This document shows positions 18,193 to 19,945 of a stretch of 64,000 bases of DNA, piece after piece. The stretch is from an uncultured Candidatus Saccharibacteria bacterium (GTDB lineage Bacteria > Patescibacteriota > Minisyncoccia > Phycocordibacterales > UBA2100). The notes below the pieces were generated by a model that worked only from the letters and a program-made list of their open reading frames with translations, was not told the origin of the DNA and made no database searches. Position 1 is the stretch's first letter; each line of letters opens with the position of its first letter. The translations under genes and the position numbers were made by a program. The stretch covers positions 1,089-65,088 of the forward strand of contig CAZUVH010000002.1 of the NCBI GenBank assembly GCA_964623775.1, written 5' to 3'.

Positions 18193-18591
18193 ATGTTCGA
18201 GAGATTCCCCAAAAAACCCAAAGATGATGATGAGCATGACCCTGCGGAGGAATTGACCAACGAAGACCTTGAAAAAATTGCAGAGGAGGCCGCAAAGATG
18301 ACTCCTGACGAAAGGATGTATTTCACACGCGAAGAGATCGCTCAATCGCAAAATAAGATGCATTTTCAGCAGGAAAGAGTCGCACATCTGAACGCGCAGA
18401 TCGAAAACCTGAAGGAGCGCCTGCGATCACTAAGTGGGGCGGAAAAAGAATTTATTCAAAAACAACTCGATGAGAAAATCGCCCACCGCGACGAATACAG
18501 CGAAGCTATGGCGGAGCTTGAGGAAGATGTGGCTGAAGGTAAAGATGTTCTCGATAATCTCGAACAAAGCAACAAGAAGCATTTCAACTAA
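18193..18591 (+). CDS. acidic coiled-coil protein embedded in ATP synthase operon (hypothetical)
   Basis: 132 aa, starts 6 nt after the atpA stop and ends 3 nt before the atpG start; very acidic, heptad-like. Confidence 0.6.
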   Translation: MFERFPKKPKDDDEHDPAEELTNEDLEKIAEEAAKMTPDERMYFTREEIAQSQNKMHFQQERVAHLNAQIENLKERLRSLSGAEKEFIQKQLDEKIAHRDEYSEAMAELEEDVAEGKDVLDNLEQSNKKHFN

Positions 18592-18593
18592 CT

Positions 18594-19571
18594 ATGGCAT
18601 CGCTTAAAAACATAAAACTCAAGATTTACTCGTACAAGAAGACGGGGACTGTCACGCACGCCATGGAGGCAGTGTCTGCCGTAAAGATGCGCAAGGCACA
18701 GGAGCGGGCACTCTCGGGCCGCGCGTACGCTGCTGTAGGGCTCTCGGTGCTTGAGCGACTCTCTGGTACCGCCGATCTCAAGCGTCATGCACTCATGTCG
18801 GCCCAAGGCCGATCTCAACCCAAGGCTGATGAGCCTAGGGCTCACGCCTCGGGCGGACAGTATGCGGGAAAAACATGTTTTATTTTGGTTACATCCGATA
18901 AGGGTCTCGCAGGATCACTCAATAGCGGTGTTATACGCAAGCTCGAGCAAGAACTCATCGATCGCAACCTTGAGCAGAAAGATGTCGTTATGATCGGCAT
19001 TGGGCGTCGCGGTGCAGACTTTTTTGCAAATCGCGGATATGAAGTGCGTGCAAAGATCGAAAATGTCGCAGAGAGCATCTCTGAGCAGGATATACGCGAG
19101 GTCACCAACAGGGTGATCGAGTGGCATGCGAGTGGCGAGATAAGCCAGTGCGTCGTCGTGTACCAAAATTTCATATCAACATTCGAGCAGCACCCGAGCG
19201 TCCGCCAGCTCGTCCCGGTGACCACCGCCTCGATGCGCGACATGGTGAAGGGCATCCGTCCGGCCAAGGGTCGCTATGCGCCCGCGCAAGATACAGAGCT
19301 CAAAGAGGGGCCGGCCGCCTATACGATCGAGCCCGATGCCGATACCGTCCTTGCGCTCCTTTTGCCGCGCCTCCTCAATGTCGCCGTCTTCCATGCGGTC
19401 TTGGAGAATAAGGCTTCCGAGCACTCCGCGCGCATGGTCGCGATGAAAAGCGCGACGGATAAGGCGAAGGAGATGGCGCACAATCTGACGCGCAAGTTCA
19501 ACAAGGTGCGTCAGGCGGCGATCACACGCGAGGTATCGGAAATCACTTCCGGTATGGAAGCGATGAAGTAG
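18594..19571 (+). CDS. atpG: F0F1 ATP synthase subunit gamma
   Basis: MASLKNIKLKI...T..AMEAVSAVKMRKAQ N-terminus and C-terminal helix RQAAITREVSEI; 325 aa (longer than typical). Confidence 0.9.
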   Translation: MASLKNIKLKIYSYKKTGTVTHAMEAVSAVKMRKAQERALSGRAYAAVGLSVLERLSGTADLKRHALMSAQGRSQPKADEPRAHASGGQYAGKTCFILVTSDKGLAGSLNSGVIRKLEQELIDRNLEQKDVVMIGIGRRGADFFANRGYEVRAKIENVAESISEQDIREVTNRVIEWHASGEISQCVVVYQNFISTFEQHPSVRQLVPVTTASMRDMVKGIRPAKGRYAPAQDTELKEGPAAYTIEPDADTVLALLLPRLLNVAVFHAVLENKASEHSARMVAMKSATDKAKEMAHNLTRKFNKVRQAAITREVSEITSGMEAMK

Positions 19572-19573
19572 TT

Positions 19574-19945
19574 ATGGAATCGTTCGAGAAGAGCGAAAGC
19601 TGGCATGATCGACATGCATATTATCAAAAAATGAGAGTCATGAGAGATCAATTAATCGAAAAGGCGAAGGAAAAAATGGGGGACCACGAGGGCGGTCTTT
19701 GGTATGGCGATAAATGGAACACCCATCTTAAGAAGTTAAATGCCGAATTCGGTGACCTTGCTGATTCATATGCCGCCTGCCATGCGTTTATAAGTAGCAC
19801 TGTGCCCGAAGATCCGACGGAGGACTACGACGAAGGTTCGGAAGAGAATTGGTCCACTCATATACGACGAACTGAATTTCCCGGAGAGTTTTCGATCAAA
19901 AAGTTCTACGAGACCCTCGAAGCTGAACTTGAGTCCAAAAATTAG
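19574..19945 (+). CDS. acidic protein embedded in ATP synthase operon (hypothetical)
   Basis: 123 aa, starts 3 nt after the atpG stop; atpD follows. Confidence 0.55.

Follow-up and report, generated by a model that had tools for sequence, protein, structure and literature searches.

Two small acidic protein genes at variable junctions in the F1 part of a Kaiserbacteria-type ATP synthase cluster

The stretch of DNA considered here (the window, 64,000 nucleotides (nt) of contig CAZUVH010000002.1) belongs to a Kaiserbacteria-like member of the Patescibacteria. It carries a cluster of ATP synthase (atp) genes in which two small open reading frames (ORFs), here called ORF1 and ORF2, lie on either side of atpG, the gene for the gamma subunit. 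The relevant features are as follows.

13448-14269, atpB, in the atp cluster
14270-15001, no strand given, 732-nt insert in the atpB-atpE cargo slot
15477-15704, atpE, in the atp cluster
15728-16174, atpF, in the atp cluster
16177-16572, plus strand, atpH (delta, 131 residues, N-terminally short; Pfam; short form clade-wide)
16589-18187, plus strand, atpA (alpha, 532 residues), the 5' neighbour of ORF1
18193-18591, plus strand, ORF1 (132 residues, acidic, helical, coiled-coil-like), in the atpA-atpG slot
18594-19571, plus strand, atpG (gamma, 325 residues; Pfam PF00231, E = 2.5e-79)
19574-19945, plus strand, ORF2 (123 residues, acidic, all-alpha), in the atpG-atpD slot
19943-19980, plus strand, promoter-like element for atpD-atpC (best sigma70-like site, conserved in relatives)
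19981-21354, plus strand, atpD (beta, 457 residues)
21422-21673, plus strand, atpC (epsilon, 83 residues, beta-sandwich only; Pfam; short form clade-wide)

All eight subunit genes are intact around ORF1 and ORF2, which fill the atpA-atpG and atpG-atpD gaps exactly; the untranslated gaps along the series atpA, ORF1, atpG, ORF2 and atpD are 5, 2, 2 and 35 nt. An earlier note on this DNA had the coordinates and gene order of this region right, and its spacings of 6, 3, 3 and 36 nt are the same gaps counted otherwise. The operon order that it gave holds for the F1 part but omits, between atpB and atpE, the 732-nt insert with its opposite-strand ORFs and terminators. Pfam confirms the short delta (131 residues), the epsilon without C-terminal helices (83 residues) and the long gamma (325 residues) that it described: delta aligns only to positions 64-168 of the 172 of the OSCP profile, and epsilon consists of the beta-sandwich domain alone. 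The clade median for gamma is 305 residues, with 320 or more in just 2 of 105 relatives; the ~20 extra residues in the window (..SAQGRSQPKADEPRAHASGGQYAGK..) are inserted as a loop after the N-terminal helix, at about residues 62-90, and the length of this loop is variable among relatives. These gamma relatives are metagenome-assembled genomes labelled Candidatus Kaiserbacteria, Paceibacterota or Parcubacteria, some being mislabelled Saccharibacteria, and the nearest is 70-73% identical. The proportion of guanine plus cytosine (GC) is 0.43-0.46 in ORF1 and ORF2 compared with 0.55-0.60 in atpA, atpG and atpD. A Shine-Dalgarno sequence is absent from every atp gene and from both ORFs. All three of the junctions that we describe below as cargo slots (atpB-atpE, atpA-atpG and atpG-atpD) are occupied in the window.

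ORF1 is strongly acidic, as the note had said (isoelectric point (pI) 4.73, net charge −15, grand average of hydropathy (GRAVY) −1.27, 42% charged residues). Its description as a heptad-rich coiled coil is plausible, although the signal is weak: in a crude test, 18% of shuffles equalled its score at heptad positions a and d, and its matches in Pfam, NCBIfam and PADLOC are generic coiled-coil ones, all sub-threshold, so that it belongs to no family in these three collections. A word-based search of 5.8 billion protein clusters, made with ORF1 and with a profile of ORF1 plus its homologue in locus L002, returned only ORF1 itself and L002; the ORF1 profile had zero matches in a JGI metagenome scan, and no relative was found in IMG/VR. 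The sole homologue in those clusters and in all the fetched loci is L002:5619-5999 (P0003, 126 residues), which matches over the full length with 43% identity in 124 columns and lies between atpA and atpG, 5 nt and 1 nt from its neighbours. The two members of the family (alignment A1) share a conserved N-terminal MFER[FP]PKK and a core QER[VI]AHLNAQ..L.ERL.SL.GAE. There is no promoter-like signal 5' of atpG, and the packing of ORF1 in the window, 5 nt and 2 nt from the adjoining genes, is compatible with translational coupling.

ORF2 is likewise strongly acidic (pI 4.94, net charge −11, GRAVY −1.11, 35% charged residues), in agreement with the note, but does not end in the D/E-rich tail that had been described: the acidic run (residues ~78-92) is an internal loop, variable and prone to insertion and deletion, and a conserved C-terminal helix follows it. 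The word-based search of the 5.8 billion clusters found ORF2 only. With phmmer, a complete scan of 1.84 billion representative sequences identified four credible homologues.

P0004, locus L126, 50% identity, E = 2e-30, between atpG and atpD
P0005, locus L155, 45% identity, E = 2e-13, between atpG and atpD
P0006, locus L156, 38% identity, E = 4e-13, between atpG and atpD
P0008, loci L157/L158, 38% identity, E = 3e-4, adjoining rpmG, with no atp cluster

The family (alignment A2) thus has five members, four of them directly after atpG, with P0008 the exception. This most distant member (109 residues; L157:1261-1590 and L158:328-657) sits beside rpmG, the gene for ribosomal protein L33, and is without the acidic loop. 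Another candidate, P0007 (818 residues, 7 matched stretches), looks spurious, its match being driven by repeats of 'YLKKLNAE'. The residues conserved in the family are Y17, R24, G36, W43, K47, Y66, H70, S75, V77, S107, F111, Y112, E118 and L119. As the homology extends to residue 5, the start of ORF2 is taken to be the ATG at 19574, and the 89-residue gene call in Logan is a mis-start that follows an internal Shine-Dalgarno-like sequence. An AlphaFold2 model calculated from the five-sequence alignment is confident (predicted local distance difference test (pLDDT) 85.9, predicted template modelling score 0.78) and predicts a long helical hairpin (residues 10-35 and 37-65), an acidic loop of low confidence and a helix at the C-terminus (108-121); from the single sequence the prediction is poor (pLDDT 50.7). 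The model matches no solved fold, ORF2 has no match in Pfam, NCBIfam or PADLOC, and a hidden Markov model (HMM) of the family, compared with the other small ORFs found between atpG and atpD, gave nothing above decoys.

Both ORFs are annotated coding sequences on the 235-kb NCBI contig, and three Logan contigs, each assembled on its own from a separate sequencing run, agree with the window at 100% identity. Stop-free frames as long as ORF1 and ORF2 arose in 8 and 5 of 20,000 shuffles, respectively. At 38-50% identity the ratio of non-synonymous to synonymous substitution (dN/dS, method NG86) was not estimable, dS being saturated or undefined, and identity by codon position was used instead. For positions 1, 2 and 3 it is 0.56, 0.72 and 0.36 between ORF1 and its L002 homologue, and 0.64, 0.64 and 0.43 between ORF2 and that of L126. 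Because identity at the second position equals or exceeds that at the first and both lie well above the third, with synonymous sites saturated, selection appears to act on the encoded proteins. Homologues occur in the same slots of related atp clusters (L002 for ORF1; L126, L155 and L156 for ORF2). No ATP-synt Pfam family matches either ORF, neither is similar to the atp subunits or to the cargo enzymes described below, and neither is a piece of a disrupted atp gene. Judged by these substitution patterns, the comparison shows that ORF1 and ORF2 are genuine protein-coding genes under purifying selection. They are new, tiny families without an assigned function.

The setting of the two genes was examined in 151 related loci, reduced to 116 non-redundant ones with a gamma subunit at least 50% identical, in which every atp junction was measured. 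The frequencies of inserts of at least 200 nt were as follows.

atpB-atpE, inserts in 19% of clusters
atpA-atpG, inserts in 34% of clusters
atpG-atpD, inserts in 68% of clusters, up to 3.5 kb
atpE-atpF, atpF-atpH, atpH-atpA and atpD-atpC, inserts in 0-1% of clusters

The gaps at the junctions are mostly short in more distant Patescibacteria. Between atpG and atpD, NUDIX and/or Ham1/RdgB genes are present in 39 of 88 clusters and the slot is empty in 28; further cargo comprises a helical family of 91-109 residues, membrane proteins and MazF, and the 51 uncharacterised ORFs fall into 36 BLAST clusters. The slot between atpA and atpG is empty in 62 of 100 clusters, holds NUDIX, YfbR-like HD or MazF genes in 9 and only small ORFs in 29. 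These small ORFs have a median length of 123 residues, are mostly helical and in 77% of cases have a pI below 6.5; the orphans among them (n = 30) form 21 BLAST-unrelated clusters, each ORF spanning its gap to within a few nt, and the small ORFs 5' of atpG end 1-8 nt before its ATG.

Genes for nucleotide house-cleaning are common inside the F1 part of the relatives' clusters (for example L003:6920-8786, L001:5206-5985 and L020:3806-4210), a NUDIX or a YfbR-like HD 5'-deoxynucleotidase gene standing between alpha and gamma in some of them. A PemK/MazF-like toxin gene is an occasional occupant of both slots flanking atpG. In the atpG-atpD slot of L035 (6922-8341), two identical 95-residue membrane ORFs flank a 263-residue chimeric ORF composed of the beta N-terminus and a middle segment of gamma, which points to a duplication at this locus or else to mis-assembly.

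ORF1 and ORF2 occur independently of each other. L002, with the ORF1 family, has a gap of 42 nt between atpG and atpD, while L126, L155 and L156, with the ORF2 family, have empty atpA-atpG slots with gaps of 6-68 nt. Carriers of the ORF2 family are scattered on a neighbour-joining tree of gamma. Comparison of close relatives gives clean differences: L126 has 388 nt in place of the 34 nt of its near-identical sister L128, precisely from the atpG stop to the atpD start and with flanks 86% identical, and L076, the sister of L002, is without the ORF1 family. The comparison of loci shows the slots atpA-atpG, atpG-atpD and atpB-atpE to be clade-wide hot spots with contents that are swapped, gained and lost. 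The statement that the spacing of the two genes was not that of later insertions is not supported, as their presence or absence is lineage-specific at hot-spot junctions. The same survey speaks against the proposal that the extra proteins compensate for the short delta and epsilon. The short forms of delta (median 128 residues) and epsilon (median 83 residues) are clade-wide, ORF1 and ORF2 are rare, and in 11 of the 77 clusters in which both could be scored the two slots beside atpG are empty; the enzyme therefore does not need ORF1 and ORF2, and they are not obligatory substitutes for stalk or regulatory elements.

Whether the small proteins encoded between atpA and atpG form one family was assessed with an HMM seeded from ORF1 and its L002 homologue, with reversed sequences as decoys, and with hhalign. 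In the first two rounds the HMM collected 10 forward proteins from this slot and no reversed decoy, and later it drifted to a generic coiled-coil profile on which decoys scored equally. The hhalign probability between the ORF1 family and the other ORFs of the slot was 7% or less, with no difference between forward and reversed sequences (p = 0.23). A single family of all these coiled-coil ORFs was therefore rejected as unproven, and the likeness of ORF1 to the other small proteins is positional and physicochemical only. The spacer before atpG has features of its own. About 30 relatives have an untranslated spacer of 40-150 nt there. In seven (L075:3415-3503, L011:5925-6003, L014:5900-6003, L110, L136, L099 and L004; alignment A3) a conserved non-coding element of ~60 nt lies directly 5' of atpG, with the core CTCAGGATGTAAGATTTTCTAA..TCGC..CTC..AACAAAATCTAAC-ATG, which includes a minimal ATG-TAA start-stop. 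Tandem repeats of 7-8 nt are present in the spacer of L033, L016 and L104, and also in L120, L025, L043 and L097.

The 35-nt gap between ORF2 and atpD, which the note (as 36 nt) had included in the spacing of co-translated genes, does not fit that description as the 5 nt and 2 nt around ORF1 do: the top-scoring sigma70-like site between 13000 and 22500 lies there, a consensus-level prediction of 10 out of 12 (TAGAAA-16-TATAAT at 19943-19970), with its -10 box 10 nt from the ATG of atpD. The atpD spacers of the relatives are promoter-like and of three types, namely TAGAAATTT..GGCTATAATCC (type 1), TTGATAATTAGCCATTATTTAGATATACT (type 2) and TTTGTCA-N17-GTAAAAT (type 3). Sigma70-like matches of at least 9/12 were found 5' of atpD in 62% of loci, 5' of atpA in 39% and 5' of atpE, atpF, atpH, atpG and atpC in 0-7%. 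In most relatives 3-13 nt separate the -10 box from the start codon of atpD, so that an atpD-atpC transcript would be leaderless or nearly so. In the window, a further sigma70-like sequence at the 3' end of atpH (16544-16573, TTTACG-18-AATAAT), 5' of atpA, may be a second internal promoter.

In NUDIX-bearing relatives, the type 1 spacer also encodes the C-terminus of the NUDIX protein (..TRNFVxxGYNPLxx*), and it persists in NUDIX-less relatives with gaps of 40-52 nt. The spacer DNA of the window, read in frame 3 and out of frame with ORF2, encodes 13 residues matching NUDIX C-termini (tblastn, E = 1e-4). This is most simply explained if a NUDIX gene stood 5' of atpD in an ancestor and later disappeared or gave way to other cargo, while the end that bears the promoter was kept. 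The two ORFs were themselves considered as NUDIX remnants, an idea that we rejected: only these 13 spacer codons (19944-19982) resemble the NUDIX C-terminus. NUDIX-like coding sequence is also present at 39898-40284 and 43179-43574 of the window (tblastn with the slot NUDIX proteins of relatives, E = 9e-14 and 7e-8). NUDIX genes are retained elsewhere in this genome, though the one upstream of atpD appears to be lost.

The third slot lies between atpB and atpE. Its 732-nt insert is bracketed by a 117-nt direct repeat of the 3' end of atpB (14153-14269 and 14885-15001, 96% identical), of which the second copy encodes a duplicate atpB C-terminus (..MMFEVFIGFLQAAIFALLTLFFIKLAIAEPHGAEAH), and it carries a minus-strand ORF for a multi-pass membrane protein of 159 residues (14318-14797). 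It looks like a recombination insertion that duplicated its target. One strong terminator-like hairpin, on the minus strand, occupies 14282-14311 and another, on the plus strand, 15005-15029; an extended -10-like TGnTATTAT, TGGTATTAT (~15425-15435), lies 5' of atpE. From these signals the genes atpE to atpG probably have their own promoter, and the slot is predicted to be a transcription boundary as well. The interval from the duplicated atpB end to atpE contains a second minus-strand ORF (15014-15388, 124 residues, hydrophobic) with no family match.

Additional ORFs in atp operons have precedents, among them atpI and an ORF between the gamma and beta genes of Rhodobacter blasticus, and several known proteins invite comparison with ORF1 and ORF2. 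Like ORF1, the mitochondrial ATPase inhibitor IF1 is small, soluble, hydrophilic and mostly helical, its coiled-coil-like helices coming after an N-terminus that is charged and probably disordered, and is poorly conserved in sequence; an inhibitor of this type would be sensible in an enzyme without the C-terminal brake of epsilon. However, IF1 is not encoded in the operon, neither ORF matches the IATP family (PF04568) in Pfam at E ≤ 1, and BLASTP of ORF1 against bovine IF1 gave E = 0.83, the matched 'ERMYF' stretch not being kept in the L002 homologue. The zeta subunit of alphaproteobacterial F-ATPases (~100 residues, all-helical), proposed to take over the inhibitory role of epsilon, is close to ORF2 in size and helical content, but there is neither a match to its profile (DUF1476) nor a four-helix-bundle fold like that of the solved zeta structures. 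Neither ORF matches the C-terminal domain of epsilon (ATP-synt_DE, PF00401) at E ≤ 1, or any sequence in the PDB.

In position, the nearest precedent is the extra frame 'gene X' that Tybulewicz, Falk and Walker reportedly described in 1984 in the atp operon of Rhodobacter (Rhodopseudomonas) blasticus, a small, unrelated ORF of unassigned role that separates the genes for gamma and beta and so lies exactly at the atpG-atpD junction. It comes from a single species of another phylum, whereas the clusters studied here have at this junction a slot that varies across the whole clade and is filled in 68% of them, and the two are likened by position, not by sequence. The products of atpI/uncI, atpZ and the atpR/atpQ of N-ATPases are small membrane proteins encoded at the 5' end or at fixed positions. 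They are alike to ORF1 and ORF2 as non-core genes alongside those of the ATP synthase, but the two ORFs are strongly hydrophilic, lie inside the F1 part and do not encode membrane proteins of the AtpI/AtpZ/AtpR type. The slots also resemble phage 'moron'-like or integron-like hot spots, in which conserved flanks enclose variable small orphan genes that are cleanly gained or lost and a retained promoter keeps up downstream expression; unlike these, they have no integrase, there are no att-like repeats at atpA-atpG or atpG-atpD, and the scaffold is a core bioenergetic operon. Neither ORF had a tblastn match in 50,697 phage records, the PADLOC defence models gave no match for ORF2 and, for ORF1, only coiled-coil noise below the threshold, and an Rfam scan of the whole window had no matches.

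We favour the reading that ORF1 and ORF2 are co-expressed, dispensable accessory passengers rather than subunits, and give it a probability of about 0.6. It is argued from a distribution that is patchy and independent for the two genes and from the mixed company that they keep in the slots, and the homologue of ORF2 next to rpmG, outside any atp cluster, counts in its favour. ORF1 would then be an internal cistron transcribed and translated within an atpE-F-H-A-ORF1-G unit, its translation reinitiating 5 nt past the atpA stop and the ribosomes being handed on to atpG 2 nt past its own stop, and ORF2 would be the last cistron of the atpE-to-atpG unit. The atpD and atpC genes would be driven additionally by their own near-leaderless promoter, and because of this promoter cargo after atpG could be tolerated without harm to the expression of beta. 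Cargo would be exchanged through recombination, with the conserved flanking sequences of atpG and atpD as anchors, and in the lineage of the window an earlier NUDIX gene would have been replaced, its promoter-bearing 3' end being left behind. The two proteins would be soluble accessory factors with a dosage tied to ATP synthase expression, and would not replace the short delta and epsilon stoichiometrically. Several observations weigh against this reading. The ORF2 family is kept in its slot where gamma is only 50-65% identical, which fits a functional tie as well as hitch-hiking, and ORF2 identity declines in step with that of gamma. The uniformity in type of the 29 of 100 atpA-atpG slots with only small, mostly acidic helical ORFs exceeds that of a random landing pad, a hint that these ORFs may have a role in common. 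The site before atpD is a promoter by consensus-level prediction, a similar signal stands 5' of atpA in 39% of loci, and the gamma tree is a neighbour-joining tree of a single protein.

Some of these points lead directly to a different explanation, in which ORF1 and ORF2 regulate F1 or assist its assembly in particular lineages. ORF1, as an IF1-like coiled coil, and ORF2, as a zeta-like helical protein, would bind alpha3-beta3-gamma and limit wasteful ATP hydrolysis or chaperone assembly; the unrelated small acidic helical ORFs between atpA and atpG of relatives would be fast-evolving functional equivalents. The tight packing between genes for catalytic and rotor subunits agrees with this, as do the retention of the ORF2 family after atpG in 4 of 5 members across deep divergence and of the ORF1 family after atpA in 2 of 2, the 29 slots just mentioned, the lack of an epsilon C-terminal domain throughout the clade and the first two rounds of the ORF1-seeded HMM, which drew forward proteins of the slot and no reversed decoys. 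We nevertheless find it unlikely. In sequence neither ORF resembles IF1, zeta or the C-terminal domain of epsilon, the ORF2 model matches no fold, the HMM drifted to a generic coiled coil and hhalign gave at most 7% (p = 0.23), slots are empty in 62/100 (atpA-atpG), 28/88 (atpG-atpD) and 11/77 (both) clusters with the same short epsilon and delta, the same slots carry NUDIX, Ham1, HD, MazF and membrane proteins, and one ORF2 homologue stands beside rpmG. Alternatively, the ORFs could be young or de novo spacer-filling frames, derived from AT-rich DNA at permissive junctions, for which the act of translation, carrying ribosomes from atpA to atpG, outweighs the product, the proteins being generic helical polypeptides. 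A GC content 7-10 points below that of the flanking atp genes, here and in most small-ORF inserts of relatives, would be expected from such an origin, the 21 BLAST-unrelated clusters among 30 orphans of similar size that fill their gap within a few nt are in keeping with it, and the tandem short repeats in some spacers before atpG are a possible source of new DNA. This is improbable in view of the amino acid conservation of both ORFs at saturated synonymous divergence and the confident, compact fold predicted for the ORF2 family (pLDDT 85.9), and bridging translation is not required, because ~30 relatives have untranslated spacers of 40-150 nt before atpG. That ORF1 and ORF2 are not genes, but frames left open by chance, pseudogene remains of disrupted atp or NUDIX genes or products of mis-assembly, we regard as highly improbable. 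They are orphans in the word-based searches, the spacer 3' of ORF2 is NUDIX-like and one gene caller cut ORF2 to 89 residues, but the same sequence was obtained from three independently assembled runs, syntenic homologues have a coding pattern of substitution, the shuffle test gives p ~3-4e-4 and there is no likeness to atp subunits or cargo enzymes beyond a 13-codon relic outside the ORF. An origin of the two ORFs as artefacts or pseudogenes is essentially excluded.

The passenger reading makes ORF1 and ORF2 by themselves ordinary orphan genes, and their value lies in the context that they expose. The literature searched contains no description of clade-wide slots around atpG, of NTP-pyrophosphatase (NTP, nucleoside triphosphate) cargo in them, of a swarm of small ORFs between alpha and gamma or of an internal near-leaderless atpD promoter. 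A bolder proposal, argued by analogy and distinctly unlikely, is that the small acidic helical proteins between atpA and atpG, present in ~30% of Kaiserbacteria-type genomes and including ORF1, are hyper-divergent IF1-analogous regulators of F1 that are co-translated with alpha and gamma and replace the epsilon brake, with the ORF2 family as a second modulator. If so, the setting would be that of fermentative, ATP-limited symbionts without the epsilon C-terminal brake, and the NTP pyrophosphatases of the slots would mark the atp cluster as a 'nucleotide-economy' super-operon.

As it stands, the comparison cautions that tight spacing within a conserved operon is not evidence of subunit status. 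In atp clusters from one large branch of the Candidate Phyla Radiation, the genes for F1 make up a scaffold with three defined cargo slots and not a fixed operon, and the cargo between gamma and beta is most often an NTP pyrophosphatase (NUDIX or Ham1). The slot proteins are candidates for the regulation of an ATP synthase whose epsilon is without the inhibitory domain, and the slots would offer a natural system in which to follow the gain, retention and replacement of orphan genes inside an essential operon.

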